Source of the DNA: a virus
Lineage: Duplodnaviria > Caudoviricetes
Strand: one strand, 5' to 3'
IMG/VR virus record: IMGVR_UViG_3300005529_000010
Location: 827-64,826 of that record
DNA: 64,000 nt
Made by a program: the position numbers and the translations under genes. Under the pieces are notes generated by a model. It had not been told where the DNA came from and did no database searches. It saw only the letters and a list, made by a program, of their open reading frames with translations. Below, piece by piece: positions 23,348 through 42,089 of the stretch. Position 1 is the first letter of the stretch; each line of letters starts with the position of its first letter.

Positions 23348-23683
23348 TCAAACCCCCAGAATTTTGCTCACCTGCAGGTGCTCCTGGAAATTGAGCCAAA
23401 TCCATTCCGCGCGCTGCGTGCGGTCCTGCCAATTGACGTCCGTTAAATCAAATCCGTCAATATTTAGAACGGCGTCCATCTGCTGGTGCATACTTTGATG
23501 GTTATACGCCCAGCCCCCCAAACTATACAGCGGCATTGGGTCGAGCTGATATTCGATTAAATAAATCTTATATATTTCTCGAATGCGCCGAATGATGTCG
23601 CGGTGGTGCGCCATGTGCGAGAACGCCCAGGTGTTCATCGCGGGCTGATCGTTGGGGATGTTGGCGATGCTGGCGACGCTCAT
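23348..23683 (-). CDS. His/Trp-rich hypothetical virion-module protein
   Basis: ATGA coupling; repeated W...H...H motifs. Confidence 0.65.
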   Translation of the reverse strand: MSVASIANIPNDQPAMNTWAFSHMAHHRDIIRRIREIYKIYLIEYQLDPMPLYSLGGWAYNHQSMHQQMDAVLNIDGFDLTDVNWQDRTQRAEWIWLNFQEHLQVSKILGV

Positions 23684-25933: not shown

Positions 25934-26896
25934 CTAGAACCGACCGTAGGGGTTCGACCACCTTCCGGGGCGGGCGTAGGCGCCATATCGGGTCATGAAG
26001 CGATCGAACTCGCTCGACATGAAGCGCGCCGAGTTGAAGTTCTGCAGGTCCATGAAGGCGAAATAGGCCGCCATATACGGCACGCCGTCGGTCCACGGCC
26101 GGGGCAGCGCCTCGTAATCCTGGTCGCGGATCAGGTCACTCGGCAGGCACAGACAGTCCCATTCCATCTGATAGGGCTGCGAGGCGATCGGGTAGAAATA
26201 GATCGAGCCGTCGGTGCCTTGCCCATATTGAGCGCAGATCGTCGGGACATACTGATATTGGAACGGATACTGCCGAATATAGGCTTGATAAGTCGAAAAG
26301 CTGTATTGCGGCAGGCTGTAGCGGTAATTCGCGTAGATAATACTTACCGACAGCACTGCGAATATTGCATCGACGCCTGGCCACATCGACGTGTCGACCC
26401 CGGCGAACGGGTACACCTCCTGCCCCTCTTGCTGGAGGTTCATGAAGCTGAGATTGGGCGACAGGATCGCGCCGTTCCCCGTGGGATCGACGATCGACAC
26501 GTTGGGCTGGAAATAGCCGGCGCCGCCGTAGGTCAGGTTGACGCTCGTGATCGATCCGCCGCCGAGGCTGCAAATCGCGGTGGCCTGCTTGCCGTTCGGG
26601 TTCGGCTGTGCGCCGGACGGAAAGTCGGGCGGCGTGATCAGCACCGACGGAGCTGTGTATCCCGAGCCGCCGGCGGTGACGTCGATCGATTTGATCGAGC
26701 CGGTGATCGGCGTCAGGCGGCGCAGGCATTGCGTCCGCATCGCGACCTCACGGCGCGAGCGGTTGACGTACTCGATCAGATCGGCCGGATCGAGCATCTC
26801 CATCTTGCCGTCGTGCAGCAGGCGCTGCGTCTGCTTGAGATATTCGAACAGCGTGCCGCGCGTAGGTGCGGTAGCTGGGCCGGCGTACGAGATCAC
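25934..26896 (-). CDS. Head-tail adaptor paralog 2 with GSGY insertion
   Basis: YLKQTQRLL..DLIEYVN..QYGQG.DG..PWTD.VPY.AAY.A. Confidence 0.7.
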   Translation of the reverse strand: MISYAGPATAPTRGTLFEYLKQTQRLLHDGKMEMLDPADLIEYVNRSRREVAMRTQCLRRLTPITGSIKSIDVTAGGSGYTAPSVLITPPDFPSGAQPNPNGKQATAICSLGGGSITSVNLTYGGAGYFQPNVSIVDPTGNGAILSPNLSFMNLQQEGQEVYPFAGVDTSMWPGVDAIFAVLSVSIIYANYRYSLPQYSFSTYQAYIRQYPFQYQYVPTICAQYGQGTDGSIYFYPIASQPYQMEWDCLCLPSDLIRDQDYEALPRPWTDGVPYMAAYFAFMDLQNFNSARFMSSEFDRFMTRYGAYARPGRWSNPYGRF

Positions 26897-27673: not shown

Positions 27674-28765
27674 TTACGGGGCGGGCTGGAGGACGACCGT
27701 GTCGTTCACCGAGCCCAGGGTCAGCGTGACCGTGCCGCCGGTGCCAGCACCGACAACGAGCGCGGTCGGCGTGCCGGCGAACAAGCCACCGTCATAGATC
27801 GTGCCGAAGCCCGTGATCGAACCCGCCGACAGCGTTGCACCGATCGATGCCTTGCGCGGACGGTAGAGGTTGAATTCGAACGCCGGATTGACCCACTGCG
27901 GCGTGCCGGCAGGCTGTCCGCCAACCGTCGTGATCTCGGCGGCCGAGCCGTATCCGGAGCCCGCACCGGTGACCACCACGGACGTAACGGTGGTGAGCTG
28001 CACCGCGACGATCGACGCTGCGACCGTGCCGCCGCCCGCCGTCAGCGTGGGAAGCGAGGTCACGGGGCTGCCCGCGTTCGTGCAGAGCACGCCGGTAATC
28101 GAGCCCGCACCCACCAGGCCCAGCGTCACCGTCGGGTTGCTCGTGGGAGGAGACGGATCGTACGGGCTCGGCAAGATCAGCGCCGTCGGCGCCGTCGTGT
28201 AGCCCGCGCCGACATTGGTCAGCGACACACTGGACACCGTGCCGCCGGTCAGCAGCGCGACAGCAGTCGCGGGGATGCCAGGGCTCGGCGGTGCCGGGAT
28301 GAACACGAGCGGCTGCTGCGTGTAGGTGAGCCCGGCCGCGCCGGTCACCGTGACGACGGAGCACTGTCCGCCGACGATCGGCTGCCAGGTCGAGTTACCG
28401 GCCGAAGCGGTCACCGTGGCCTTGGCCTGGGTGTAGCCCGAGCCGCCGGCGACGACGATCGCGCCGATCATGCAGCCCGTCAGGTTGGCGATGCGCGCGT
28501 TGAAGCCATCCGACTTCACGAACTGCATGCCGGTGCGCGCGCTCTCGTGGCCCCTCCACGTCCCGCTGATCGGGTCTTGGAACTGAACCATCGAGACGTT
28601 GCCGCTGCCGACGTACCAATCGCCGGCCGGAAGCGTTATCGCTTCGCCCGGCTCTAGCGTCAGCTCGTTGGTCGAGGTGTCGTACGGAGCGTTGTAAAGC
28701 TCGGACGGATAGAGATAGGTCGGGAGCGGAAGACCGTTGCCCGGGCCATTCAAGGGCTGTGGCAT
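27674..28765 (-). CDS. Capsid decoration/accessory protein with GSGY repeats
   Basis: Directly after major capsid gene; GGSGY/GAGY repeats. Confidence 0.65.
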   Translation of the reverse strand: MPQPLNGPGNGLPLPTYLYPSELYNAPYDTSTNELTLEPGEAITLPAGDWYVGSGNVSMVQFQDPISGTWRGHESARTGMQFVKSDGFNARIANLTGCMIGAIVVAGGSGYTQAKATVTASAGNSTWQPIVGGQCSVVTVTGAAGLTYTQQPLVFIPAPPSPGIPATAVALLTGGTVSSVSLTNVGAGYTTAPTALILPSPYDPSPPTSNPTVTLGLVGAGSITGVLCTNAGSPVTSLPTLTAGGGTVAASIVAVQLTTVTSVVVTGAGSGYGSAAEITTVGGQPAGTPQWVNPAFEFNLYRPRKASIGATLSAGSITGFGTIYDGGLFAGTPTALVVGAGTGGTVTLTLGSVNDTVVLQPAP

Positions 28766-28778
28766 TTGTCAGTCCTCC

Positions 28779-29822
28779 TTACCAGGCGCTTCCGCCGATG
28801 TTGTACACCCACGCTCCAGAGTTCGACTTGGCGCAGACCAAGTTGTACCCAAGAACGACGATCCCCTGCTGGCCGATCTGGCCAAGAGGAACCAGAGAAT
28901 AGAAGCCCGAGAAATCGAGATTCGCGTCCTCCGATATGTACATGTTGAAGTATTTGAGGTTCGGGACGAACATCGAGCCCTTTGGCACGAAGTGATCCGC
29001 GAAGATCGGCACGCCCGAGACATTGAGGTTCGGGAAGCTCGACCGCGCCGGCGTTGAAATCTCGTACTGATTGCCGGGCCTGACGAACTGCTGCTCGGTC
29101 CCGATGAAGTCGGCGTTGAGCGTGGCGTGATCGGCCGGGTTCATGACCCCGAAGGTCGGCGCCTCGCCACCGGCGTTGTCGGTGATGTATTCCAGGACCG
29201 CCGCCATGGCCTTGCGGTTGAAGCCCAGCGTGTTCACCGAATAGGTGGAGAACTGGGTGGCCATGTTGATGTACTGGCCCTGGAAAGCCGAATTGCCGGG
29301 CGCGTTGCGGTTGATGCCGCCGTAGGTCGGAACGTTCGTGCCGTTGTCGAACGCCTCGACGAAACCCTGCGGCAATTGCAAATTGTTCGAATTGTTCGTG
29401 AACATCAGCCGCGCCATGTTCTGGCGGGTGACGGCGTAGGCGTCGTTCATGCGGGCCTTAAGCAGCGAGATCTCTCGCTCCGTGGCCTGGATGACCGTTT
29501 CGCCGAACGGCAGCGGGATCGGCACGACCCAATAGGCTGTCGCCCATTGCCCGTTCTGTATGCCCGGCGTGATGACTGGCGAGTTGAACCCGCCGCCATA
29601 GCCGGTGAACTGGCCCTGCACCATCGACTGTCCCTGCATCGGGATCGTGATCTGGTTGAGGCCGCCGGCGGAACGCTGTGCGTTGCCAAGCAAATAGAAG
29701 AGGGTCGCCGAAGCGAAATAGATTTGGACGAACAGCTTGGGCACGAACGCGCGGCGTGTGACCGCCGTCAATTCGTTGTACAGCCCGCCGGTCGGAACTG
29801 CGCCAATACCTGGTAGCGGCAT
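28779..29822 (-). CDS. Major capsid protein
   Basis: 347 aa after scaffold; GGINR, GVPIFADHFVP..MF..N.KY HK97-type C-terminal pattern; GGGAG RBS. Confidence 0.85.
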   Translation of the reverse strand: MPLPGIGAVPTGGLYNELTAVTRRAFVPKLFVQIYFASATLFYLLGNAQRSAGGLNQITIPMQGQSMVQGQFTGYGGGFNSPVITPGIQNGQWATAYWVVPIPLPFGETVIQATEREISLLKARMNDAYAVTRQNMARLMFTNNSNNLQLPQGFVEAFDNGTNVPTYGGINRNAPGNSAFQGQYINMATQFSTYSVNTLGFNRKAMAAVLEYITDNAGGEAPTFGVMNPADHATLNADFIGTEQQFVRPGNQYEISTPARSSFPNLNVSGVPIFADHFVPKGSMFVPNLKYFNMYISEDANLDFSGFYSLVPLGQIGQQGIVVLGYNLVCAKSNSGAWVYNIGGSAW

Positions 29823-29835
29823 CTCGTGATCTCCC

Positions 29836-30426
29836 TTACTTACGGACGCCGCCGCGCAGCTCGGTCAGAGTGCCGTCGATCATGCGGCGAAGCGCGATTT
29901 CGTCTTCGCCCCGCGTGTCCAAGAGCTTCTTGAATTGCTCGTCGTCCCGCGACGTCGGCTCGAACAGATTCCAGCTCCCGTACCCGTTGGTCGGGGCGCT
30001 GACATCGGTCGGCGGATGACGTTTGCGGAACAGAGCCTCGGCCGCTTCGAGATCCGGAATGCCGCGCTCTTCGGCGAGCTTCTCGATCTCGGCAATGCCT
30101 TCGTCGGTGTAGCCCTCGGCCCGAAGTCCGGCCTTCTGCTTCTCCCAACTGTTGGCGAAAGCGTCGCGGCGGGATTGCGCCTCGCGCTCGGCCTTCTCGT
30201 CGGCGATCTGCTTTTCGAGGGCTAGACGCGCCTCGCGTTCCTTCGCGATCTCGTCGCGAATCTCCGCCTTGGCGTCTGTCAGTGGCGTGGCCGCGTTCGG
30301 GTCGATTTCCCGGATTGCAGCTTCGAGCTTCTCGCGCGATTTCGGATTGCGCAGGAGATTTCCATACAGCTCCCGCAGCTTTACATTCGCGACAAATTCG
30401 CTCTCTTCGATCTCGCGCGTCGCCAT
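29836..30426 (-). CDS. Scaffolding protein
   Basis: Charged coiled-coil protein immediately upstream of capsid gene. Confidence 0.7.
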   Translation of the reverse strand: MATREIEESEFVANVKLRELYGNLLRNPKSREKLEAAIREIDPNAATPLTDAKAEIRDEIAKEREARLALEKQIADEKAEREAQSRRDAFANSWEKQKAGLRAEGYTDEGIAEIEKLAEERGIPDLEAAEALFRKRHPPTDVSAPTNGYGSWNLFEPTSRDDEQFKKLLDTRGEDEIALRRMIDGTLTELRGGVRK

Positions 30427-30429
30427 GGC

Positions 30430-30603
30430 TTAGGTCTTCGAGCCGGCGTTGGGGACGTGCTGGATCGACAGGTCGGGGCTTTTGCCCTGCGACGGAAGGT
30501 GATCCTTCCGGCCGCCGATCTCGTTCTCGTCCATGCGGACGCGGACGATCTGATCGTCCGACTTGGGCACCGTCTTGGTGCTGTCCTGGAAGATGTTAGC
30601 CAT
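30430..30603 (-). CDS. 57-aa head-module protein (absent from ORF track)
   Basis: Manual translation MANIFQDSTKTVPKSDDQIVRVRMDENEIGGRKDHLPSQGKSPDLSIQHVPNAGSKT; GAGGA RBS; fills the gap exactly. Confidence 0.7.
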   Translation of the reverse strand: MANIFQDSTKTVPKSDDQIVRVRMDENEIGGRKDHLPSQGKSPDLSIQHVPNAGSKT

Positions 30604-30612
30604 GTTGTGTCC

Positions 30613-31044
30613 TCACGCGGCGGTGGGCATCGGGCTCGGCGCGGGTCCACCGCCGCCGGCGCCTTGCTGCTGCGCCGCTCGCATTTGAGCGATCTGCGGA
30701 CCGGCCGAGGCCGACCGCAGCATCATGTTTTGAAGCTGATTCTTTTCGGCCGCCGGGTTGAGCGTGCCGGGTGGCGCGTGCTTCGCCAGTCGGCCGATCG
30801 CCTGATGGACGTCTCGGCCGACTTCCGAAGCGGTCCCCACAAGGGGGAGCGCCCGCTCCAATATCTGGACCGCAAGAGCGACCTGCTTGATGCCGGCCAT
30901 CTCCATGCCGCGATTTTGCGTCGGCTGCGTAGCCGGGGAGGAGCCCATAGGCGGCTGACCCGATTGCGCAGCGGCGCCGGGGGGCGAACCACCCGGAGTC
31001 GCGGCCGGAGGAGCACCGGCATTCATGGTCGCGCCGTCAGCCAT
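30613..31044 (-). CDS. Pro/Ala/Gln-rich head-module protein
   Basis: 143 aa in the capsid operon. Confidence 0.7.
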   Translation of the reverse strand: MADGATMNAGAPPAATPGGSPPGAAAQSGQPPMGSSPATQPTQNRGMEMAGIKQVALAVQILERALPLVGTASEVGRDVHQAIGRLAKHAPPGTLNPAAEKNQLQNMMLRSASAGPQIAQMRAAQQQGAGGGGPAPSPMPTAA

Positions 31045-31090
31045 CGGCTAACAGCGACCCTTTACGCTTTTTCATCCGATATCGGAGCAT
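31037..31090 (-). CDS. Basic micropeptide MLRYRMKKRKGSLLADG
   Basis: Starts 4 nt after the previous micro-ORF; overlaps start of the 31044 gene. Confidence 0.4.
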   Translation of the reverse strand: MLRYRMKKRKGSLLADG

Positions 31091-31094
31091 GGGG

Positions 31095-31136
31095 TTAGCG
31101 GTGCTTCCGACCGCGCCGACGATAGCGTACGTCCAT
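31095..31136 (-). CDS. Arg-rich micropeptide MDVRYRRRGRKHR
   Basis: GGAGG RBS 6 nt upstream of ATG; first ORF of the capsid block. Confidence 0.55.
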   Translation of the reverse strand: MDVRYRRRGRKHR

Positions 31137-31305
31137 GACGTGCCTCCGTGGGTTAAGGGTTGCGCAACGACCCGGGAACTCCTCGTTTCAACCGCCACCG
31201 GTCGGGCACACCCGAACCCGGAAGCAAATTGCCTGGGTCGTCTGCAATATTTACGGAGTGGCGTTATTGCCGAAGCTGGCGAAAGGTTGTAATTGACGCG
31301 TCGAG

Positions 31306-31521
31306 ATGACTTACGCTGTTCATCACTCGACAGTGGCGGCGAAGAAAGAAATCAAATGGATTTCGCCGAAGCGCGCCGCGACCATTCTCGGTAAAACGGT
31401 CGAGTGGCTGATGCGGGCCCGAAAAAAAGGGAGCGGCCCGCCCTATTACAATTCCGGTGGTCGCATTCAGTACGATGAAGACGAAGTGATCGCGTTTCGG
31501 GATTCGTGGCGCCGCGAATGA
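31306..31521 (+). CDS. Excisionase/AlpA-like HTH protein
   Basis: WISPKRAATILG..WL...R..G.GPPYY..GGRIQY. Confidence 0.8.
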   Translation: MTYAVHHSTVAAKKEIKWISPKRAATILGKTVEWLMRARKKGSGPPYYNSGGRIQYDEDEVIAFRDSWRRE

Positions 31522-33261
31522 TCAGCGGCGGTGGCCGCCGCTCTTCTCCAGCAATTTGATGAAGCCTTCCGGGTCGGTCTTCTGCAGCTCGGCCATCATC
31601 TTCTGCTGCTGCTCCGCGCGCTTCTTGATGCTCGCGTGCAGTCTCTCCTTATTCGGGAACGGCAGATTGTCGACGGCATAATCCGGGTCGACGAACCCCG
31701 CCTTGAGACCGAACGCGATGAGCTGCTGATGATCGTCGGCGAAGATCGGCGAGCCCGAATGCCCATCGACGCAAACGCGGTAATCGACCGGCAGGTCAGA
31801 CAGCGTGAAGCTGGTATCGTCGATCGTCTTGAGCGACGAACCGTCGGTCCAGAAATTTCGATTTTCCTTCGCCTCCATCATGCGCAACCGGAGATGCGCG
31901 GCCGAGGCGCATTGGCGCTCGACGATCAGCGACCGATCGCGCAGCGTCGGGCTGCCGGTTTTCAGGAGCGTGTTCGCATGGACGCCGGCGCGCACACCCT
32001 GCTCGCCCTTGCCCTGCATCAGCGCTTCGAAGCCGCCGAGGCTGTCGATCGCGCTCATGACCAGCTCCATGAGCGGGATGATCTCCGGCGGAAACTTCGG
32101 CGTCAGGTCCGACACGTTCGAGCCGGCGACGCCGTTGAAGAATCCAGCCGAGCGCATCTGGTCGTAAGTCTCGACCGTGATGCCGTCGAAGCCGGAGAAC
32201 GCGAGGATCTTATCCACCTGCAGTCCTGCCAGGCGCATGATGTCGACGCAGATCGTCGACAGCCAACCCTGCGGCTCGATCAGATCGGTGATCTCGGAAC
32301 GGCCCCAGATATAGCCGGTGACCGCGTTCGGCTGGATCAGCGTATAGGGATGCAGCCGGGTTTTGACCCGCGATCCCATCAGCAGATTTTCGCGCTTGTA
32401 GCGCGTGATCAGCACATCGGGTTCGATGATCTGGATCGTCTTGTAATCGCCGTCATCGCCCCACACCCACAGCTCGTGCATTTTCACGAGATCAACACCC
32501 ACCTCGGGGCCCATGATCGCGTAGTTCGGATCGTTGTTGAGCTGCACGATGCCGCCGGGCACCGGCCGCGTCATGCCGACGTTGCCGGTGTTGAGCGTCG
32601 AGGTCGACAGCACCTGGTGCAAGAACGTGCTGAATTCGGTGTTCGTATTGCCGCGCTGCGCGTGATCCTTGATCCGCTTGAACAGCGTCGGCGCTTCCGG
32701 CATGTGGTAAACGCGCTTCCACACCTCAGGAAGCGACATAAGGGTCGTCTCGCACATGGCCGGCTGCTTGTCGAGGTCGGCCACGTCTTCGCGGTAGACG
32801 CCGAAATGCCATGGCATGACCAGGCGAGCGCTATAGGTCGGCTGGCCGTCGGGCTCCTTCTCCACCCATTGCTTGAGAATGGATGCGCCGTATTTCAGGC
32901 TTTCAAAAACACCCTGCGAAAAGGTGATGTCGGTGTTGTTGTGCTCCCAATCGCGCGACAGCACCTTTGCGACCACCGCGCCGCGCTTCAGAATTTCTTC
33001 CGGATATTCGTTCTCGAAATCCACAGCGAAGCGAAGATCGGTCGGCGAGAACAGGTGAGAGGCCGCGCGATCGACATGCTTGAAGAGCTTGTTGATCAGC
33101 GACCGCGTTCCGTCCTGGCGACCGGTCTCGACGATCGCGTTGATCTGCCGGCAGAACGCGGCGCGAATGCCCTGGCTGACCTGGCACGCCTCGATGTAAT
33201 CGAGCGCTTCCTTGACGGCGCGGCGATTGTCGGGGGAGAGCGAGAGGACGGCGGCGACCAT
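31522..33261 (-). CDS. Portal protein
   Basis: 579 aa from MVAAVLSL; between terminase and scaffold; INKL, GY.WGRSE, QGKGEQGVR motifs. Confidence 0.8.
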   Translation of the reverse strand: MVAAVLSLSPDNRRAVKEALDYIEACQVSQGIRAAFCRQINAIVETGRQDGTRSLINKLFKHVDRAASHLFSPTDLRFAVDFENEYPEEILKRGAVVAKVLSRDWEHNNTDITFSQGVFESLKYGASILKQWVEKEPDGQPTYSARLVMPWHFGVYREDVADLDKQPAMCETTLMSLPEVWKRVYHMPEAPTLFKRIKDHAQRGNTNTEFSTFLHQVLSTSTLNTGNVGMTRPVPGGIVQLNNDPNYAIMGPEVGVDLVKMHELWVWGDDGDYKTIQIIEPDVLITRYKRENLLMGSRVKTRLHPYTLIQPNAVTGYIWGRSEITDLIEPQGWLSTICVDIMRLAGLQVDKILAFSGFDGITVETYDQMRSAGFFNGVAGSNVSDLTPKFPPEIIPLMELVMSAIDSLGGFEALMQGKGEQGVRAGVHANTLLKTGSPTLRDRSLIVERQCASAAHLRLRMMEAKENRNFWTDGSSLKTIDDTSFTLSDLPVDYRVCVDGHSGSPIFADDHQQLIAFGLKAGFVDPDYAVDNLPFPNKERLHASIKKRAEQQQKMMAELQKTDPEGFIKLLEKSGGHRR

Positions 33262-33263
33262 GA

Positions 33264-33842
33264 TTACGATCCGGGTCCGGCGTTGCCGCGTCGCACGACT
33301 TCGAGCGCCGGGCTGTCCGTCACCAAGCCGCCCGCCGCAGCGTGAGCCCGTCGCAACATTTGGGATGTCCGCAGCCCGGCATACGGCTCGGGGCCCTGGC
33401 CGGTGGTTTGCGCATATGCCTCGCCGCCGGCGAACCCGACAGGCATGCCGCGCGCCTGCATCTCGGCCATGCGCCGTGTGACGTCGTTCGCCGGCATCGC
33501 TACAGCAGCGGTGTCGCCCTCGCGCAGATTGTCCTTGAGATCGGTGATCTTCATGTCGGCGAAGTCGGACTCCGGCTGGCCGGTCATCTCGGCGGCCGCC
33601 TCGATGCGCGACTGCGCCTCCGCCTCCATCATGCGGTATGTGGCATCGCCGGCTTTCGCCTTGTTCGTGCCGATCATCGGCGCGGTGATCGCGGGGCTGA
33701 ACTCGGCGGCCCGCTCTTCGGACTGCGTGTCGTATCCGCACAGCGGACAGAAACGCGGCGGAGCTGTGTCGGTCGACGGGTGGTGGAGGTGCGAGAACTG
33801 GCCGCCACACTCCGGGCAATTATATGTGCGAAGTTTCGCCAT
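33264..33842 (-). CDS. FmdB-like zinc-ribbon protein
   Basis: TYNCPECG..CPLCG; between terL and portal. Confidence 0.7.
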   Translation of the reverse strand: MAKLRTYNCPECGGQFSHLHHPSTDTAPPRFCPLCGYDTQSEERAAEFSPAITAPMIGTNKAKAGDATYRMMEAEAQSRIEAAAEMTGQPESDFADMKITDLKDNLREGDTAAVAMPANDVTRRMAEMQARGMPVGFAGGEAYAQTTGQGPEPYAGLRTSQMLRRAHAAAGGLVTDSPALEVVRRGNAGPGS

Positions 33843-35767
33843 CACCTGCGCCCTCTCCATTGAGCGCGCCGCATCATAGCGAGTTGTGCTTGGCGCGCGC
33901 CAGCTTTTGCTTTGAAAAATGAATCCAATTGAGTTTGATTGAACATCGTTATTTGGTCTTTGATTGTCAGCCGCTTCTTGGCTTCTTCCTGCGCGCGCGT
34001 GCGACGGAAGGTGACCATCTCCTTGCGGGCGCGCTCTTCCCAGCAGCGCACGCCGAGCGCGAGCGAGATCACGCGATCATCTTTGTTGTTCTGTGACGCC
34101 TCGATCGAATCGCCCTCGCGCTGGATCGTCTTCATCTCCTCGATCGTGTCGTGCGATCGCAGACGAAGCATGCCGTTCGCGGTGAAATCGCGGAGGCGTT
34201 CCATCACGGCGACCTTGAGCTGAGCGGTCGTCTTGAAGTGCCAATTGTGGCCGGCCCCCATCGAGTCCGAGCGGTTGTAAATGTACTCCCGCACGTTGAA
34301 GAAAATGTTGCGCAGCCCCTTCTCGTCGATCGGCTTGGGCTGATAGCCGACCTGGATCTGATGCTTGAGCGATCGCAGCTCGTTCATCACCGCTTCGCCG
34401 GGACCGTTGATCTCCAGGATGAAATAGACGGTCGCCTTCCCATTGCCGCCGACGGTCGAATAGTGGCCGAGCAAAGACGCGATCACCCACGCGAACTGCC
34501 GCGTGTTGACGAGCGGCCAGGCATATTCGGCGACCTGGTCCATGCCATCGGCGTAGCAGCGCAACACCTGGATCGCCGAGCGATCGTTGTTCTCGTTGGC
34601 GCCGAAGGCGGGATCGGCCGCGATCACATAGACCGCGTCGTTCTCCGGCTCTTCCCACACCTTGAGCTGCACCGATCGCGCGTTCGGCGCCGGATAGATG
34701 CTGGACTCGGCGAACTCGATTCCGGTGCCGTAGCTGTAGGTTTTGAATTTGTTGCTGACGTGATTGTTTTCCTGGTCGGTCAGAGATCCCGGATCGAAGA
34801 ACGTGGCGCCGGTGACCTGGAAAGCCTCTTCCTCGGTCCACGGCTGTTCTTGGATTTCGAGCACGTCGCCCTCGAACTCCGCGTCGGCATCGCCGTCGGG
34901 CTCGGCGAGCGGGTCCATCTTCCAACGAATCCATGCGAGCTGTTCAGCCGTGACTTCCCAGCCGTAGCGATCGCGCACCTCGCGGATCTTCTGCAGCTCC
35001 TTGTCCGATGGCGGCTGCATGCCGTAGCGCAGGAAGTCGGGATGCTCGCGGGAGATGAACTGCGTGTCTTTGGCCCACCAGCCGATAAATATCGGGACCT
35101 GGTGCGAGGTGTCGGCTTTCGCCTCCCGCCACATCTTGTGCCACTGGTTGTAGCCGCGCGCCGTCGATTCCCAGAGATAGAGGCGATCGGGGTACTGGTC
35201 CGACAGCGAGTTCTCGAAGGCCGTCAGGCCCTCGGTATTGTCCCACGAGCACATCTCGCTCGCGTGAACGAAGTTGACACCGGCCGACCGACCGAGCACA
35301 CCGGACGTCTTACCCGCACGCACGCCGGCCGAGGCGAAGTTGCAGATCGAATCGTTTTCGAGCTGCAGCATGGTCCGATTGTTCACGACGATGCCGGGGA
35401 AGTGCAGCGACTTCGGCAGGTTTTCCAGCATGACCGTCAGCTCGGTACGGGCGCGCTCTTTGTTGCCGTCGGTGTCGAACACCATGAAGCCGTTCAGGCC
35501 GTCATGGATGCCGATCCAGAACAGCGTGAGCGCGCGCGACAGCGTCGAGATTCCGAGCTGGCGAGATTTCAGAACCTTGAAATCGTGCTTGTCCTGGCTG
35601 AGCCCGGAAAAGATGCCGTCCAGCAATCGCTGCTGAGCACGGTAGACGTGCTCGCCTAAAATAATCTTTCCTAAATCTTTAGAGTTGACCTGGACGTACT
35701 GCAGGAAATTGAGGAATTCCTGTTCGAATATTTGAACCTTTTCTTTATTCCAGCCGCCGGTCAGCAC
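33842..35767 (-). CDS. terL: Terminase large subunit
   Basis: VLKSRQLGIST (Walker A), FVHASE (Walker B), ESTARG, IAADPA and DDRV nuclease motifs. Confidence 0.92.
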   Translation of the reverse strand: MLTGGWNKEKVQIFEQEFLNFLQYVQVNSKDLGKIILGEHVYRAQQRLLDGIFSGLSQDKHDFKVLKSRQLGISTLSRALTLFWIGIHDGLNGFMVFDTDGNKERARTELTVMLENLPKSLHFPGIVVNNRTMLQLENDSICNFASAGVRAGKTSGVLGRSAGVNFVHASEMCSWDNTEGLTAFENSLSDQYPDRLYLWESTARGYNQWHKMWREAKADTSHQVPIFIGWWAKDTQFISREHPDFLRYGMQPPSDKELQKIREVRDRYGWEVTAEQLAWIRWKMDPLAEPDGDADAEFEGDVLEIQEQPWTEEEAFQVTGATFFDPGSLTDQENNHVSNKFKTYSYGTGIEFAESSIYPAPNARSVQLKVWEEPENDAVYVIAADPAFGANENNDRSAIQVLRCYADGMDQVAEYAWPLVNTRQFAWVIASLLGHYSTVGGNGKATVYFILEINGPGEAVMNELRSLKHQIQVGYQPKPIDEKGLRNIFFNVREYIYNRSDSMGAGHNWHFKTTAQLKVAVMERLRDFTANGMLRLRSHDTIEEMKTIQREGDSIEASQNNKDDRVISLALGVRCWEERARKEMVTFRRTRAQEEAKKRLTIKDQITMFNQTQLDSFFKAKAGARQAQLAMMRRAQWRGRR

Positions 35768-35773
35768 ATGGGG

Positions 35774-36043
35774 CTAATAGCGCCCGTATCCGCTTTGCGC
35801 AACCCGCTGTTTTTCCTCCAGCTCGGCGATCTGCATCTCGGCCGTGGTTTTCAGCAGCGACCAAAACATGGCTGGGCTTTTTTGATTGTTCAGCAACAGC
35901 AGCTCGACCGGATCGCCCTCGGGGGGCACGACGACGAAGGCGCCGGCGAACCCCTCTTGAGCGTTGAGGTCGACGCGATCGGCCATCTTGCGGAACGGCG
36001 CCGATCGCGCGGCCGCGTCGATGTCTTCAATCAGGTTGGTCAC
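35774..36043 (-). CDS. Hypothetical protein upstream of terL
   Basis: GTG start overlapping the upstream stop (GTGA). Confidence 0.6.
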   Translation of the reverse strand: MTNLIEDIDAAARSAPFRKMADRVDLNAQEGFAGAFVVVPPEGDPVELLLLNNQKSPAMFWSLLKTTAEMQIAELEEKQRVAQSGYGRY

Positions 36044-36279
36044 GATGTTGGCTCCGAATACCAGATGTCGACTATAGCCGAAGGGACGAACGCCCGGCGG
36101 GTCACGTTGCAAAGCGAGGCATAGACAGACACGGAGTCGCCGCGCGCGAGATCGACACTAATAAACGACTTGCCAATCTGCCGGGGCTTCATGATCAAAG
36201 CGGCAGGTGGGCTTAAGGCCGAGGTCGCAGCCAGCGCCGCGACTCCACGGAAGAAACCCCTGCGGTTTAGCTTTGTCAT
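36040..36279 (-). CDS. 79-aa protein with Tat-type signal and capsid-like/terminase-like motifs
   Basis: NRRGFFR + hydrophobic stretch; KPRQIGKS; YASLCNVTRRAFVP. Confidence 0.7.
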   Translation of the reverse strand: MTKLNRRGFFRGVAALAATSALSPPAALIMKPRQIGKSFISVDLARGDSVSVYASLCNVTRRAFVPSAIVDIWYSEPTS

Positions 36280-36288
36280 GGTGGCCTT

Positions 36289-36471
36289 TTATCGATGCCA
36301 GAGACCGAGTGGATGCAGCGGCATGTACTGCAGCAGCACCAACAGGAAGATGATCAGGAAGATGATGATCACGACGGTTTTGAAGGGCGGAGGCAGGGGG
36401 ATCATGGTGATCACCGCGTAGATCAGCCCAAAAAACAAAACCAGCACGAGCAAGGTGATTAAAATATCCAT
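36289..36471 (-). CDS. Two-TM small membrane protein (Thivi_2564-like)
   Basis: LLVLVLFFGLIY..IPLPPPFK..IIFL; GGAGG RBS. Confidence 0.7.
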   Translation of the reverse strand: MDILITLLVLVLFFGLIYAVITMIPLPPPFKTVVIIIFLIIFLLVLLQYMPLHPLGLWHR

Positions 36472-36485
36472 TACGGCGTCCTCCA

Positions 36486-36581
36486 TCACCAGAACTTCAA
36501 GATGAAATGGGTGTAGGCGACAAGGATACCAACGATGTAGATGCCAAGAAGAACGAACGCGCCCTTGACCAGCGGGGTCAC
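36486..36581 (-). CDS. 31-aa membrane peptide
   Basis: Manual translation MTPLVKGAFVLLGIYIVGILVAYTHFILKFW; GTGA-coupled. Confidence 0.5.
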   Translation of the reverse strand: MTPLVKGAFVLLGIYIVGILVAYTHFILKFW

Positions 36582-37345
36582 AGCGCGATCCCCTTCATTT
36601 GCAACAGGCGCTCGTAGATCGAGAAATCCTTGCAGTGCGTCAGGTAATCGATCCCATAGGGGAAGGCGTGCGCCAGGTTGTTGACCGTCACCCGATCGAG
36701 GTCGTTGCGCAGCCCGCGCAGCGGCAGGATGAACAGCTCGTCGCCGATCAGCCTCTCGAAAATAACCTCAGGGATCGAGCCAGGCGTTAATGGCTCGTTT
36801 CCACGATTGGGCCAGTCGTATCGCTCGACGAAGCGTGATTTGCGCAGATAGGCGACGTCGAGGAACATCAGGCCGTTTTCGAGGAACTGATAGATCGGGT
36901 CCATCGGACACGCGGCGGCGATGCCGTGCCGAGCAAGCCTGTCGACGATCGGCGCGACCGGCCGCGTGAAGACGATATCGACATCCTTGTACGCGATGAA
37001 GTCGTATTCGTGCTCGATCGCTATCTCGATGCCCCTGCATAGCGCCCGCCCCCATCCGTCCCGTCGTGTCGTGTTTAGGTGGCCGATATTGTCGGCGAAT
37101 TCATAAATAGAATATTTCCGATTTTCCCTTCCGGTCCATCGTTGAAAGCCGTAGGGCTCCAAAAAGTCACGGGGCGGGGTCGGCGACGCGCTGTCGACGA
37201 TCAGGATGTCCGTGTCCGGATTGAGATGCTGCGCCAGCCGCGCCCACAGCGTGACGAGCTTGGCCCCATAGCCCTGCGCGCCCTCGCCGACATAGGACGT
37301 GCCCAGGATGAGCGTGCGGGGCTTAATATCCTGGGAGGTGGTCAT
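36578..37345 (-). CDS. Putative GT-A glycosyltransferase
   Basis: ILIVDSAS and YDFIAYKDVD (DxD) motifs. Confidence 0.65.
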   Translation of the reverse strand: MTTSQDIKPRTLILGTSYVGEGAQGYGAKLVTLWARLAQHLNPDTDILIVDSASPTPPRDFLEPYGFQRWTGRENRKYSIYEFADNIGHLNTTRRDGWGRALCRGIEIAIEHEYDFIAYKDVDIVFTRPVAPIVDRLARHGIAAACPMDPIYQFLENGLMFLDVAYLRKSRFVERYDWPNRGNEPLTPGSIPEVIFERLIGDELFILPLRGLRNDLDRVTVNNLAHAFPYGIDYLTHCKDFSIYERLLQMKGIAL

Positions 37346-37541
37346 ACTTCCCCTCGATCTCCGTTGAAAGCGCCGTCCCCACCGAAGCTGAGTTCATGAC
37401 CTGGTTGGCGAGCGCCTTGGGCACCCCGGCGTAGCGGGAAAATTTGCCGCTGATCCACATCACGACCAGCTCGCCGGTACTATCGTCCCAGCCGATTTTG
37501 CTTACGCGCTTGGAGAACACGTTGCGCATTTCCAAACTCAT
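37323..37541 (-). CDS. KTSC domain protein
   Basis: V.S..VSKIGWD....LVV...SG...RY.GVP......MNSASVG. Confidence 0.8.
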   Translation of the reverse strand: MSLEMRNVFSKRVSKIGWDDSTGELVVMWISGKFSRYAGVPKALANQVMNSASVGTALSTEIEGKYDHLPGY

Positions 37542-37746
37542 GGGCGCGCTCCTGTTCGGGATGGGCCATTATTGCGTCGATGTTCTGTCGCACCCACGCG
37601 AGGGTCGCCGGCAGCCCGGCCTGCCGGTAGTAGGCGAGCACGGTTTCAGACGCGATTTTGATCGGCGCGTAATTGAGGAGCTGACGCAGCTCCGGAGGGA
37701 GCTGATCGTGAGCGGCCATTCGGCCCTCGACGCCGGCCTGAACCAT
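37480..37746 (-). CDS. Hypothetical protein
   Basis: MAAHDQLPPELR motif; fills operon gap. Confidence 0.5.
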   Translation of the reverse strand: MVQAGVEGRMAAHDQLPPELRQLLNYAPIKIASETVLAYYRQAGLPATLAWVRQNIDAIMAHPEQERAHEFGNAQRVLQARKQNRLGR

Positions 37747-37747
37747 C

Positions 37748-38077
37748 TCATGCTCGGCCGACCTTCGGGGGCTCGACGCCGTAATTCTCGGCCGCGTCCT
37801 GCATCAGCTCATGCACGATCGGCCCAAGCACCGTGTCGTTGTCCTCGATCGTCTCGTCGGCGAACAGCAGCATGGGGATGCAGAGGATCGCGCCCTCCAT
37901 CAGCCGCGAGCCGACCGGCACCTTCCACGCGATGATTCGCCGGCGCTCGGGATCATGCCCGCCGAGACCGCGGAACTCCTCCAGCCGCTCGCCGGGCGCC
38001 GGCATGCGGATACGAAACTGCCGATCCGGATGCTCCTGGAAAAAGATGTTGTCGGCGACCTGGGCAAGCGCGCTCAT
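37748..38077 (-). CDS. Hypothetical protein
   Basis: ATGA-coupled; GGAG RBS. Confidence 0.6.
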   Translation of the reverse strand: MSALAQVADNIFFQEHPDRQFRIRMPAPGERLEEFRGLGGHDPERRRIIAWKVPVGSRLMEGAILCIPMLLFADETIEDNDTVLGPIVHELMQDAAENYGVEPPKVGRA

Positions 38078-38496
38078 GTCGGACGCTCCTGCAAAATTTC
38101 CTTCGTGCGGTCCATCATGATCCGGCACCACCGCGCGGCCGCGTGCCATTCGTCATCACCGGTGACGAGCGCGCTCGCCCGGGCAACCTTGGCCAGACTT
38201 TGCGCCATAGCCTCGATCGTGTCTGTAATTTCGAGCTGCGCCCGCATATTGGCTGACCCGCGCTCGATCACCTCGCCAAGCGCGCGATCCACCTCCCGTT
38301 CCTGGCTCTCGTGCGCGTCGCGGCCGGCGTCGGTGATGACGTAATTGAACGCATCCAGCCCGTTCAGCAGGCCGCGCTGCGTGAGCGCGCGAACGGGCTT
38401 TTCCCATCGGCCGATCGGCGCGATCGAGCCGCCGCGCACGCAGATCTCCAGGACGGCCAGCTCGTCGGTCGTGAGCGGCTCGATGACTTCGCTCAT
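38074..38496 (-). CDS. Hypothetical winged-helix-like protein
   Basis: ATGA-coupled; LTQRGLL..YVITDAGR. Confidence 0.6.
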   Translation of the reverse strand: MSEVIEPLTTDELAVLEICVRGGSIAPIGRWEKPVRALTQRGLLNGLDAFNYVITDAGRDAHESQEREVDRALGEVIERGSANMRAQLEITDTIEAMAQSLAKVARASALVTGDDEWHAAARWCRIMMDRTKEILQERPT

Positions 38497-39911
38497 ACCA
38501 GAATCCTCTGCCTGATCGCCTCGATGACGCGGTCCAGCACCGGCCGCCAGGCGCGGCTGTCGTCCTGCATGAAGACGCGGTGTCGGGGATACCAGATCGC
38601 TCCATGCTTTTCGTCGCGGCCGATCCGGTAATCGTGGCCGTCCCGACTGTAGAGGACCCAGCACTCAACCTCGGCGGCGCCGCAGATATGGCCAAGCGAC
38701 GTCTCGATCGTCACGACAAGGTCGAGATCGCGGACGATCTGCGCGGTATCGTGAGCGTCGCGGATGAAGGGCGCCAGGTCTTTGATCAACCCTTGGGCGC
38801 CGACGTCGTACAGGTCGCGCGCCCGCTCGCCGATCTGCAGGCTGTAGAGCTGCAACCCCGGGACCTTCGTCAGCTCCAGAAAGTCTGTGACCTTCATTGC
38901 CCGGTAACGTTCAAGGTCGTTGTTCGGGTCGCCCGCCCAACAGATTCCGACATGGAACTTGCGGCCCGGGAGCTTCCACGGGAACGTGGTTTCCAGGGGA
39001 CGGTAAGGCACCGGCAAGCCTGGCGCCGTCTCGAACTCCTCGTCCGTCAGCCGATAGATCAGAGGCAGCGTCGTCAGCGAACACCAATAGTCGGCCGGCG
39101 GGATGTTTTGCTCCAAGGGCCCGATCAGCACGGTTTGCGTCTTGCCCATCAGCATGCCGGCGGCGAGCTTCATCAGCGGCGGGTGAAGCGTCAGGCACAC
39201 CTGGCCACCATATTCGCCGATGCGCGGCACGAAGCGCAGATAGGAGAGCGCGTCGCCCATGCCTTGCTCGGCGGTCAGCAGCAACACCTTGCCGTCGAGC
39301 CGCTGCCCCTCCCATTTGGGATACGGCATTTGCCGGAAGTGGCGGTAGTTCCCTTGGCCGAAGCGGGACTCGAAATGCAGCAGGCCGCGCATCCATTGCC
39401 GATCGAACAGGCAGGCGAACGCAAGCGCGAGTTCCGTGTCATCGTCGCCGCCAAGCTCCCACGCGCGCTGCGCTGCGTCGCACGCCTCTCGCGTTCGGCC
39501 GGTGATGGACTCGACGAGAGACAGATTCGACCACGACAGCGGCAAGTCCGGCTCCGCCCGGATCGCGGCGCGCAGCACGGTCTCGGCTTCGGCATAGCGC
39601 GCGGCTTCATAGAGCCGGTAGCCGAGATTGCAAAGGCACCGACCCCAGGACGGGTCCAGCTCGATCGCCCGGCGATAACAGGCAATCGCGGCTTCGCGAA
39701 ATCTGAGATCACCATTCGCGTTGCCCAGCTCGTACCAGCCCTCCTTGAAAGTCGGGTCGGTCTCGACGGCCGACGACAGGAGCCGATACGCGGTATGGCG
39801 ATCGGCCTCCGCCAGCTCGACGCCCTTCTGGCGCATGACGACCGCCTGGTTGTGATACCAGATCGCGCGGTTGCGCGGCGTGTCGGGGATCTCGATTTGC
39901 TGGTCCGTCAT
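38493..39911 (-). CDS. TPR-repeat glycosyltransferase (GT9-like C-terminus)
   Basis: TPR helices then W.G..L.GK.LL..AEQGMGD, VGICWAG.P, LDLVVTIETSLGH..GA. Confidence 0.88.
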   Translation of the reverse strand: MTDQQIEIPDTPRNRAIWYHNQAVVMRQKGVELAEADRHTAYRLLSSAVETDPTFKEGWYELGNANGDLRFREAAIACYRRAIELDPSWGRCLCNLGYRLYEAARYAEAETVLRAAIRAEPDLPLSWSNLSLVESITGRTREACDAAQRAWELGGDDDTELALAFACLFDRQWMRGLLHFESRFGQGNYRHFRQMPYPKWEGQRLDGKVLLLTAEQGMGDALSYLRFVPRIGEYGGQVCLTLHPPLMKLAAGMLMGKTQTVLIGPLEQNIPPADYWCSLTTLPLIYRLTDEEFETAPGLPVPYRPLETTFPWKLPGRKFHVGICWAGDPNNDLERYRAMKVTDFLELTKVPGLQLYSLQIGERARDLYDVGAQGLIKDLAPFIRDAHDTAQIVRDLDLVVTIETSLGHICGAAEVECWVLYSRDGHDYRIGRDEKHGAIWYPRHRVFMQDDSRAWRPVLDRVIEAIRQRILV

Positions 39912-41137
39912 GCGTGCAAATTCGGGGTTGGGAAATAGGTGAGAAACCGATCGTCCGAGTTCGGCCGAAGCGCTTTGATCTTGTCGACAATCTCGGCTTC
40001 CATATTCCAGGCGGGGATCAGGAACGCGATCTTGCCCATCTGATCGAGATGGCCGGGCGCCACGATCTCCGCGCCGCACGGGGCGATCTTGCCTTGCTTG
40101 AGCGGGTTGTCATCGAAGATGACGCCCAGCTCGACGCCGGCGAAATTCAGGAACGTCATGCCCTTTGCGGCCGCGCCGTAGCCCGCCGCGTCCCACCCTT
40201 CGCTTTCGAGCTTGACGAGCGTCGTGCGGACCCAATCGGCGGACTGCTGCGCACGCGTCTGCAGCGAATCGTAGATATCCACCTGGTAATAACCGCGCCC
40301 CTTCTCGGCGTGACCCAGCTCGTAATCCTCGGCCACCTGGATCTCGGCAGCGCCCGGCCGGTTGATCAGCTCGACCAGGTAAGACGTGCCGTGCACATCG
40401 ACATGCGAGATCTTGTCGATGAACAAGCCGGCCCGCCGCGCGAGCGCGACCCACGAGCTGACGGTGAAGAACGATAAATGTTCGTGGTAGCAGGTGTCGA
40501 ACTCGCCGCGCTCGATCATGCGGGCCTGGCTCGTCTGGATATAAATCCGCCCGCCGGGCGCGAGCACCTGTTTACAGAGCTGTAGAAAATTCAGTGGATT
40601 GGCGACGTGGCCGAGCACGTTCATCGCCACGACGACATCGTACGGCTCTTCGTCCGCGAGCAGCTCCACGACGCCGCGATGCCAATAATCGCAAATGGTC
40701 GGCACGTCGCCGCTGACCTTGAGGCCGATCGCAAGGTTCTGCGCAGGATCGACGCCCTGGACTTTGTGGCCGCGCGCCGCGAACGACCGCAACAACGTTC
40801 CGTCGTTGGACGCAATCTCCAGCACCCGGAACGGTTTATTAGGAGGAAATCCCTCCTCGACCCGGAAGACGAAGTCGGTGAAATAGTGCCTTAGGCTCGC
40901 GCTCGTTCCGCTGACATAGGGGTAGTCGCGGAACATCAGGTCGGGGTCGACAGACACCAGGTTCTGGCTGTGCCAGCACCGCACGCAGCGCTGCAGCCCG
41001 AGCGGGAAGGTCTTCAACGGCCCGTCGCCGCGCTCGCGGTAGGTGTTGGCGAGCGGCTGTTCGCCGAGATCGAGATACAGCACCAGATCGCCGGCGCCAC
41101 AGGCGAGGCATTCGTCCAGACGGATGAACCCTCTCAT
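39908..41137 (-). CDS. NDP-sugar C-methyltransferase
   Basis: CLACG..LDLGEQPLAN zinc domain, LEIASNDG, YHEHLSFF, GYGAAAKG, DDNPLKQG. Confidence 0.92.
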   Translation of the reverse strand: MRGFIRLDECLACGAGDLVLYLDLGEQPLANTYRERGDGPLKTFPLGLQRCVRCWHSQNLVSVDPDLMFRDYPYVSGTSASLRHYFTDFVFRVEEGFPPNKPFRVLEIASNDGTLLRSFAARGHKVQGVDPAQNLAIGLKVSGDVPTICDYWHRGVVELLADEEPYDVVVAMNVLGHVANPLNFLQLCKQVLAPGGRIYIQTSQARMIERGEFDTCYHEHLSFFTVSSWVALARRAGLFIDKISHVDVHGTSYLVELINRPGAAEIQVAEDYELGHAEKGRGYYQVDIYDSLQTRAQQSADWVRTTLVKLESEGWDAAGYGAAAKGMTFLNFAGVELGVIFDDNPLKQGKIAPCGAEIVAPGHLDQMGKIAFLIPAWNMEAEIVDKIKALRPNSDDRFLTYFPTPNLHA

Positions 41138-41973
41138 GGCGCGAAACTCCCGAGCGGCTGTTCGCGATGCAGCTCGACCAGGCCATCGACGATCGAGGCT
41201 GGAGTGTCCACCGGTGGAAAACCAGGGATATAAGTCGGCTCCATCGTGAAATCGTATGTCGGCGTCGGATCGTGCGTTTCGATCCTGGCGTTCAGCCGAG
41301 CCGCGACGAAATTAGCGAGCTTGCCGATCTGCGCATTGAAGCTCACCAGGTTGATGATCCCCGGCTCGACCCCGCCGCCCAGCAGACCCTCGACGCCGCT
41401 GCAGAGATCGCGCACGCCGAGGATCGGCCGCATCGCCTCCAGGTTGGACGCGTGCACGACTCCCGTTTCCAGGGCGCTCTTGACCATCGCCTGGATCACC
41501 ATGTCAGGCCGCAGGTTGGGCGCGGCGCCGCACACGGTTCCAAAGCGCAGAACGTAGGTGTTTTCATAGATCGGCGGGATCAGCATCTCGGCCGCGATCT
41601 TGGTCAGATCATAGATGTTGCTGGGCCCGCCGAGATCGCGCGACAGCACCGACGCCGACGACGCGAACAGCAGTGGCTGGCCTGTGAGACGTCTGGTGAC
41701 GTCGGCCAGCTCGGACACATTCTCGCGCACGGCGCGCGCCGGCTCGGCGACCGCGCGCCTGACGCTCGATCGGCCGGCAACCCAGATCACGGCTTCTATC
41801 TCTTCGAAATCGAAAGCGCGCGTCGCGCTGCACGAGCACTTCACATTTTCGGGGTTGGTACGGTTGCCGCGCTCTTCGGTGTCGACCGTCTGGACATCAT
41901 GACCGCAGTCGGTGAGGTGAGCGAAAAGTGCGCTGCCGACATAGCCGCAGCCGCCGATGATCAAGATCTTCAC
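41134..41973 (-). CDS. NAD-dependent epimerase/dehydratase (extended SDR)
   Basis: ILIIGGCGYVG, FASSASV, YDLTK, LRFGTVCG. Confidence 0.9.
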   Translation of the reverse strand: MKILIIGGCGYVGSALFAHLTDCGHDVQTVDTEERGNRTNPENVKCSCSATRAFDFEEIEAVIWVAGRSSVRRAVAEPARAVRENVSELADVTRRLTGQPLLFASSASVLSRDLGGPSNIYDLTKIAAEMLIPPIYENTYVLRFGTVCGAAPNLRPDMVIQAMVKSALETGVVHASNLEAMRPILGVRDLCSGVEGLLGGGVEPGIINLVSFNAQIGKLANFVAARLNARIETHDPTPTYDFTMEPTYIPGFPPVDTPASIVDGLVELHREQPLGSFAP

Positions 41974-42089
41974 GGTGTCTCCCTGCCTAGACCGGCGGGA
42001 AGCTGCGAACTGCGGAACCATTCACAGACTTCCCGCCGGGCCGATCAGGAGCGGCACCAGATTGCATCCCTCGGCGGCGGAAAACGTAC

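Follow-up and report, generated by a model that had tools for sequence, protein, structure and literature searches.

ORF79, a Small Orphan Gene of a Soil Phage Whose Tail Resembles the N-Terminal Arm of the Phage's Own Capsid Protein

Introduction

The stretch of phage DNA investigated here (hereafter the window; 64,000 nucleotides, corresponding to bases 827-64826 of the IMG/VR record IMGVR_UViG_3300005529_000010, Duplodnaviria; Caudoviricetes) contains, on its minus strand at 36040..36279, an orphan open reading frame (ORF) of 79 codons which is called ORF79 in the following. We report that residues 49-78 of its predicted product, encoded at 36046..36135 (minus strand), are a diverged homologue of the N-terminal arm (N-arm) of this phage's own major capsid protein (MCP). 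This likeness, which extends over about 30 residues, is real and far beyond chance. It is preceded in ORF79 by a putative twin-arginine translocation (Tat) signal, and the small gene is packed into a late operon, its stop codon overlapping the start of the next conserved gene. The source record is 64,826 bp long, carries direct terminal repeats and is rated complete, and the sequencing run that best matches the window is a soil metagenome.

Results

The Tail of ORF79 Is Homologous to the Capsid N-Arm

The MCP gene (28779..29822, minus strand) encodes a protein of 347 aa with an HK97 fold. It matches phrog_9953 (E 5.8e-11), while its score against NF033394 (capsid_maj_Podo) is 68.3 bits, below the cutoff of 80. 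Its AlphaFold2 (AF2) model, with a predicted local distance difference test (pLDDT) score of 78, was matched by Foldseek to the HK97-fold capsid 7f38_A (E 7.5e-10) and contains a low-confidence helix at residues 13-24. Of 2907 candidates, at least 1462 proteins belong to the family with an E-value of 1e-5 or lower, and the alignment and profile used throughout were derived from 119 of the 120 relatives listed.

The N-arm segment which ORF79 resembles is formed by MCP residues 11-40 (29703..29792, minus strand). The initial annotation had noticed that the two proteins share the octapeptide VTRRAFVP, and this core is indeed present at residues 59-66 of ORF79 (36082..36105, minus strand) and at residues 21-28 of the MCP (29739-29762). 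Taken alone, such an exact 8-mer is within chance, as seven non-overlapping pairs of this kind occur among the 394 six-frame ORFs which have a minimum length of 60 aa in the window, residue-shuffled sets averaging 1.9. Alignment by BLASTP extends the match to ORF79 residues 52-78 and MCP residues 14-40, with 13/27 identical positions (30 bits; E 3e-6 as a single comparison), and in an all-versus-all BLASTP comparison of the window ORF set (60,202 aa) this pair ranks 13th with an E-value of 5e-4. With the MCP profile, ORF79 scores 19.4 bits (E 9.6e-6), the next of the 394 window ORFs reaching 3.5 bits. When the same profile was run against 82 related loci (1.12 Mb), which yield 20,253 open frames with a length of 30 aa or more, the top score outside the MCP genes was 11.1 bits.

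The contribution of the residues surrounding the core was evaluated by shuffling. With the core kept fixed and all other residues shuffled, the profile score averaged 2.5 bits with a maximum of 12.7, and none of 1000 shuffled sequences reached 19.4 bits. When each flank was shuffled within itself, the mean was 2.7 bits and the maximum 11.4, and again none of 2000 sequences reached the real score. Since no shuffle among these 3000 equals the score of ORF79, homology covers about 30 residues (ORF79 49-78 against MCP 11-40), and the capsid likeness is stronger than the initial annotation could show. ORF79 is nevertheless without the full HK97 fold: only profile positions 11-40 of 347 align, and there is no E-loop, P domain or A domain. 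Its tail is the homologue of a portion of a capsid protein, but no capsid protein itself.

The Likeness Lies at the Protein Level

As had been pointed out earlier from the codons of the core, five of the eight differ between the two genes, and all five differences are synonymous, none being non-synonymous. Outside the core, the codons of ORF79 and MCP differ at 2-3 positions. A profile made at the DNA level from 122 distinct sequences of the region where the capsid gene starts aligns in the locus of ORF79 with the 24-nt core only, which is the sole stretch with DNA-level likeness to capsid genes. This short alignment, combined with the synonymous codons of the core, indicates that the likeness lies at the protein level. 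Capture of a longer DNA fragment comprising the end of the scaffold gene and the start of the capsid gene was considered and rejected, as just these 24 nt align.

A recent donor was also searched for among 83 capsid-gene segments of the sampled loci. Their identity to ORF79 over the core does not exceed 22/27 nt, so that no recent DNA donor exists among the sampled genes. In the same segments, the DNA of the flanks is on average identical to that of ORF79 at 25 of 63 positions (~40%), and yet the flanks supply about 17 bits, that is, most of the profile score. These data uphold the earlier proposal that the resemblance reflects conservation of the protein rather than a fresh duplication.

Within MCP residues 14-40, nine columns are invariant in the 119 sequences, R23, R24 and A25 among them. 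ORF79 retains five of the nine (L18, R23, R24, A25 and V32) and alters the other four (E17S, Q33D, Y35W and S38E), many of its flank changes being conservative (L/V, F/I, Y/W and F/Y). In capsid proteins with an overall identity of just 34%, the motif is still VTRRAFIP or TRRAFVP, and E17 and Q33 are retained. The loss of columns that are invariant in capsids, together with the retention of the core, suggests that the segment evolved outside a capsid while its core was kept. It has thus probably resided for long outside the capsid protein, under a selection which preserved the core and the hydrophobic face.

A Tat-Like Head and a Walker-A-Like Stretch

The initial annotation had also ascribed a Tat signal to ORF79. 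Residues 1-29 (36193..36279, minus strand) do form a Tat-signal-like head: the twin-arginine motif NRRGFFR occupies residues 5-11, residues 12-29 are an uncharged, Ala-rich stretch, and basic residues follow. A strict regular expression combining the motif with the uncharged stretch retrieves a single ORF among the 463 of the window, ORF79 itself, and 2 of 10,913 ORFs in related loci. The NCBIfam model TIGR01409 (TAT_signal_seq) matches residues 4-24 with 16.7 bits, which equals its cutoff of 16.7 (E 0.0068). Conversely, the Pfam model TAT_signal (PF10518) gives 15.3 bits, below its cutoff of 22.7, and inspection by eye revealed no clear AxA signal-peptidase site after the hydrophobic stretch. 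The nearest neighbours of ORF79 in the ESM Atlas are Tat-signal proteins, all with scores below 0.9, and are leads only. A Tat head therefore appears plausible but borderline.

The resemblance of the capsid core to a Tat signal deserves a separate remark. The invariant T-R-R-A-F-V of the MCP (29739-29762, residues 21-28), with the hydrophobic stretch, resembles the Tat consensus by eye. A Tat-like nature of the N-arm was nevertheless rejected, as no TAT model gives a match with an E-value of 10 or lower, either to the MCP or to the tail of ORF79.

The third element described in the initial annotation, a stretch similar to the Walker A motif of the large terminase subunit (TerL), is the sequence IMKPRQIGKS at residues 29-38 (36166..36195, minus strand). 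Against a TerL profile made from 43 full-length relatives, ORF79 scores -1.8 bits (E 15), amid junk ORFs, and the alignment of the motif itself -3.8 bits. A BLASTP comparison of ORF79 with TerL did not report this stretch. The Walker-A likeness is hence at chance level, and the caution about its weakness that accompanied the original observation was correct.

Coding Context of ORF79

The ORF is as had been described, with 79 codons and the quoted sequence on the minus strand, its ATG at 36279-36277 and its TGA at 36042-36040. The exact protein is recorded as a called gene by a public pipeline on one contig. The ATG lies 9 nt past the upstream stop codon and is preceded by AAGG, and the TGA overlaps the GTG start of the following 89-aa gene (GTGA). 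An NTGA overlap between the upstream gene and the start of the 89-aa gene is found in 16 of 33 distinct relatives, compared with 21.5% (2125/9900) of random positions (binomial P 5e-4). The G+C content at third codon positions is 0.69 in the frame of ORF79, 0.53-0.54 in the other two sense-strand frames, 0.68 in the antisense mirror frame and 0.81 in the structural genes. From this context, ORF79 is probably translated.

The source run carries an identical contig and a second soil run contains small near-identical pieces only, with no variant listed within ORF79. One contig of the source run joins position 29021 to 35998, skipping 6976 nt; the shorter side of this joint measures 24 letters, below the trust level of 30, and the joint does not fall on the two VTRRAFVP core sites. 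A non-coding element at ORF79 was considered and rejected: no Rfam match rises above noise, the fold z-score is -1.5 (19 of 200 shuffles fold equally well) and no repeats are present at the ORF. No promoter-like site was found in 35600-37700, where the single terminator-like match (plus strand, 36574-36592) lies outside ORF79.

A Hypervariable Slot Upstream of the Terminase Genes

The relatives of the phage have a common gene order which consists of P133, a KTSC-domain gene, a variable slot, the 89-aa gene and TerL. The slot extends over 36040-37345 in the window and over 3500-3850, 1911-2401, 3097-3321 and 3050-3790 in the loci L004, L008, L022 and L029, respectively. It is empty in some relatives, contains a homologue of the glycosyltransferase-like protein P255 alone in others (L029 and L091), or is occupied by unrelated small ORFs. 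In L004, the closest relative in which the slot is covered, it holds P255, a small membrane protein and a 77-aa ORF with an ATGA overlap which is unrelated to ORF79; when this 77-aa ORF was examined as a possible copy of a virion protein, no significant match was obtained. When the neighbourhoods in 82 related loci were scanned with the capsid profile, no other ORF proved to carry a piece of the capsid gene, and BLAST of ORF79 against about 90 further loci returned capsid N-termini only. In related loci, capsid N-termini match ORF79 with up to 57% identity over 28 aa, exceeding the match to the phage's own MCP.

No defence or anti-defence family was recognized in ORF79, with no match in PADLOC at E up to 0.1 or in PHROGs at E up to 0.01. 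Contigs of the group (L165-L176, some of 57-60 kb, about whole-genome size) have been binned in metagenome-assembled genomes (MAGs) labelled Acidoferrum, Hyphomicrobium, Patescibacteria, Verrucomicrobia and deltaproteobacterium, and these conflicting labels, which belong to widely different phyla, give no reliable host.

Neighbouring Genes and Other Features of the Window

ORF79 belongs to a long run of minus-strand genes with, in the order of transcription, KTSC, P255, two membrane mini-proteins of 31 and 66 aa, ORF79, the 89-aa gene, TerL, portal, a scaffold-like protein and MCP. The KTSC-domain gene (37323-37541, minus strand) was assigned by Pfam (E 5.9e-10). P255 (36578..37345, minus strand), which heads the variable insert, is a GT-A-fold glycosyltransferase-like protein of 255 aa found in some relatives only. 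It matches Pfam Glycos_transf_2 (E 0.021), and its AF2 model (pLDDT 66) is matched by Foldseek to SpsA (1h7l, E 1.3e-6), WrtF and GtrB. The 31-aa membrane mini-protein (36486..36581, minus strand) shares a 4-nt overlap with each of its neighbours, GTGA overlaps linking P255 and the two mini-proteins in a chain. Its counterpart follows the P255 homologue in L004, the respective C-termini being HFALKYW and HFILKFW. The 66-aa membrane mini-protein (36289..36489, minus strand; codon score 0.40) ends 9 nt upstream of the ORF79 ATG. It has weak matches to phrog_23151 (E 0.0048) and to NF041949 (E 1e-4, below cutoff), and contains an exact 12-nt tandem duplication (CAGGAAGATGAT, twice) at 36343-36366.

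Downstream of ORF79, the conserved 89-aa gene (35774..36043, minus strand) has homologues in 33 distinct loci, and its start was set by comparison with the homologue in L004, where an ATG opens the sequence MTNLIED. It possibly encodes the small terminase subunit; no match was found in Pfam, PHROG or NCBIfam. TerL (33842..35767, minus strand) has weak PHROG terminase matches and a match to Pfam Terminase_6C (E 3.9e-4). The scaffold-like protein is encoded at 29836-30426 (minus strand).

Just upstream of the slot, a sugar-modification module occupies window positions 36578-42021 on the minus strand. In addition to P255, it includes an NAD-dependent epimerase/dehydratase (41134-42021, minus strand; Pfam E 4.3e-18), a C-methyltransferase-type enzyme (39908-41137, minus strand; Methyltransf_14 E 6.2e-20) and a TPR protein (38493-40079, minus strand), and it may be involved in glycan modification or protein glycosylation.

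Elsewhere in the window, two virion genes (9485-10729 and 11026-14988) are paralogous, sharing a 122-aa segment with 55% identity (94.7 bits), and three genes downstream of the capsid gene (23680-25920, 25934-26896 and 27674-28765) are distantly related to one another (33-43 bits). Domains of the papain-family cysteine proteases (4369-5310, E 1.2e-6), DUF932 (50654-51631, E 4.7e-53) and a Gp3-like recombination-directionality-factor-like domain (59119-60516, E 8.7e-38) were also identified.

Discussion

A Possible Mimic of the Capsid N-Arm

We tentatively favour, with limited confidence, a reading of ORF79 as an accessory gene of chimeric make-up, lineage-specific and probably young, the tail of which imitates the capsid N-arm, the partner of this tail being the scaffold or a neighbouring capsid subunit. 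ORF79 lies in the hypervariable slot, immediately upstream of the terminase genes, in a soil phage of 64.8 kb that carries terminal repeats. The predicted product combines a Tat-signal-like head of about 29 residues with a tail of about 50 residues, the last 30 of which are a diverged copy of the first helix of the N-arm and of the segment that follows. The tail appears to have been retained by selection, as it keeps both arginines along with the hydrophobic face of the N-arm helix, the part which the AF2 model places with low confidence at MCP residues 13-24, while residues universal in capsids are lost. Such a selective retention suggests that the tail acts as an N-arm mimic and occupies the docking partner of the N-arm. 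In phage 80alpha, helix alpha1 of the N-arm is bound by the scaffolding protein's C-terminal helix, and the SaPI1 protein CpmB competes at this site (PMC5644958). By analogy, the likeliest partner of ORF79 would be the C-terminal helix of the scaffolding protein or, failing that, a neighbouring capsid subunit. As for the head, it might promote export, pin the product to the membrane or have no effect.

If the tail does mimic the N-arm, a 30-residue piece of the phage's own capsid gene has been re-used as a separate small effector, which would mirror the mimicry of scaffold motifs practised by satellites such as SaPI1 and be a clear example of how a new gene can arise from a piece of a structural gene. 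VTRRAFVP, kept in capsids down to 34% overall identity, would also be marked as a functional docking site. A further variant combines the two halves of the protein: the mimic, with its export head, would capture a cytoplasmic protein docking on the invariant N-arm motif, be it a capsid sensor of the host or the scaffold of the phage itself, which would then be removed by Tat hitchhiking or pinned to the membrane. We regard this variant as very improbable; were it true, ORF79 would be a motif-level countermeasure or an assembly switch made from a piece of the phage's own capsid gene.

Several observations speak against an N-arm mimic. No homologue of ORF79 was found in 5.8 billion clusters at near lengths, save ORF79 itself, in 1.84 billion representatives, all of which were read through, or by tblastn in 50,697 phage records. 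A search of longer proteins with residues 40-79 yielded three candidates, none of which was scored, and tblastn on 82 IMG/VR, 80 metagenome and 12 genome-collection loci matched ORF79 only at capsid N-termini. ORF79 is a singleton in all these sets. The gene is also missing from about 36 IMG/VR, 11 metagenome (some being the same contigs) and 4 genome-collection loci in which the slot is covered, including L004, the MCP and TerL of which are 81% and 67% identical to those of the phage, and is thus not required by this phage group. The codon usage of ORF79 is atypical, with a score of -0.04 per codon compared with 0.31-0.48 for P255, both membrane mini-proteins, KTSC and P133, the weakest of the six ORFs scored from ORF79 to P133. 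This score lies under those of 98% of 80-codon windows of real genes and is exceeded by 16% of spurious open frames, and the ORF was passed over by a crude gene finder that had been given the structural genes as training set. Disorder is predicted by the ESM Atlas model (pLDDT 0.40), and among the RNA runs searched for this stretch, none is listed as containing it. Moreover, ascertainment explains part of the contrast of the core, which is intact, with its diverged flanks, because ORF79 was spotted through its intact 8-mer. Finally, an export head of Tat type is in tension with an assembly target located in the cytoplasm. With one sequence available, the case of ORF79 as a whole is a lead and not a result.

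Alternative Explanations

The same absence of homologues is what would be expected from a relic or by-product ORF, formed in a recombination hotspot by the accidental in-frame join of scraps including an old 5' end of a capsid gene, and encoding a peptide without function whose translation, if any, merely supplies ribosomes to the start codon of the following gene, with which the ORF overlaps. The slot is indeed hypervariable, ranging from empty to filled with unrelated ORFs, and the 77-aa ORF of L004 shows that an unrelated sequence can adopt the same 4-nt overlap. The poor codon statistics and predicted disorder of ORF79 also agree with this explanation, as does the estimate from base composition that a 79-codon open frame arises with ~8% chance per frame at this G+C content. 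However, a neutral decay able to erase the DNA likeness of the flanks down to ~40% identity should also have broken the core: with a flank residue identity of ~7/22, we calculate that eight intact residues in a row would occur with a probability of ~1e-4 per window. The flank substitutions are, in addition, largely conservative and still bring ~17 bits to the profile score, and the Tat-like head begins at a natural distance from the ATG. Nor does any sampled capsid have flanks resembling those of ORF79, which leaves a recent capture from a divergent capsid gene unsupported. A relic is therefore possible but doubtful; it would illustrate the reshuffling of capsid fragments and export heads within the variable slot located upstream of the terminase genes. 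Unlikely as well, and somewhat more so in our opinion, is that ORF79 encodes a functional exported or membrane peptide of the adjacent envelope-glycan module, for which the capsid piece was mere raw material and whose role is unrelated to capsid partners. Such a role would fit the position of ORF79, which immediately follows the two membrane mini-proteins and the GT-A-fold glycosyltransferase, with the epimerase/dehydratase, the C-methyltransferase-type enzyme and the TPR protein further upstream, and it would be consistent with a Tat-type head reaching the NCBIfam cutoff and with the Tat-signal proteins that its language-model neighbours are, leads only as they may be. Yet relatives possess the glycosyltransferase without ORF79, the glycosyltransferase of L029 and L091 abutting the downstream gene; the Pfam Tat model remains below its threshold and no signal-peptidase site was seen by eye. 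The residues kept by ORF79 are exactly those most conserved in capsid N-arms, which a glycan-related role leaves unexplained.

The initial annotation had proposed that ORF79 is a decoy for host sensors, its N-arm copy binding an immune sensor that recognises the capsid and its Tat head removing or tethering this sensor; as another option, it had named a membrane anchor or an inhibitor of procapsid assembly. We consider the decoy idea very unlikely. The Tat pathway can transport folded complexes by hitchhiking, which counts for such a mechanism, and across the family, which numbers at least 1462 proteins, conservation of the N-arm is highest in the copied motif, which would make the latter a logical target for a sensor. 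Capsid proteins directly trigger several defence systems, CapRel, staphylococcal Thoeris and CBASS among them (PMC13728456). Sensors of the CapRel type are switched on when they bind the capsid protein (PMC13728456), from which we infer that a copy of the epitope would be expected to trigger the sensor, not to silence it. Furthermore, the inconsistent taxon labels of MAG bins containing related contigs point to no host, ORF79 has no PADLOC or PHROG match, and a limited literature search turned up no decoy made of a capsid fragment. Least probable of all is that an arbitrary open frame of this G+C-rich DNA resembles the capsid by accident. Shared 8-mers are to be expected by chance (1.9 pairs per shuffled set), the seven real pairs include low-complexity ones, and the BLASTP E-value becomes ~0.02-0.2 by our own arithmetic once corrected for the all-versus-all comparison. 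This explanation is disfavoured by the family profile, in which ORF79 is separated from the next window ORF by 16 bits, by the ceiling of 11.1 bits among non-capsid frames of the related loci and by the failure of every flank shuffle to reach the real score.

Comparison With Known Systems

Like the N-arms of HK97-fold capsid proteins (phrog_9953 and NF033394), ORF79 possesses VTRRAFVP, L18, V32, I34 and the aromatic/hydrophobic pattern. Unlike them, its segment is C-terminal, stands behind an export-type head and is limited to 30 residues. With Tat signal peptides (TIGR01409 and PF10518), it shares N-R-R-G-F-F-R, an uncharged stretch of 18 residues and the basic residues that follow. Since the Tat pathway carries folded proteins, the cargo of ORF79, about 50 residues with predicted disorder, would be unusual for it. 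A precedent for a short internal piece of an MCP being by itself an active ligand is the Gol peptide of T4 gp23, known together with the Lit protease, which triggers a host defence. While Gol lies within the capsid gene, ORF79 is a separate gene.

ORF79 may also work like the assembly-interface mimics of the CpmB type, although it is not filed as a member of this group. CpmB of SaPI1 is a small protein with a copied short assembly-interface motif, namely the C-terminal capsid-binding motif of the 80alpha scaffold (PMC5644958). The two proteins are set together by role and not by sequence: CpmB copies the scaffold side of the interface and ORF79 the capsid side, CpmB comes from a phage-parasitising satellite whereas ORF79 resides in the phage itself, and the binding of CpmB has been shown by structures, that of ORF79 being suggested by its sequence. 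Finally, ORF79 resembles accessory ("moron") ORFs in being found in one lineage only, between the conserved KTSC and 89-aa genes, with an atypical codon usage and in a slot of variable content. What sets it apart from other moron ORFs is a recognisable segment derived from the phage's own capsid gene and showing a selective pattern.

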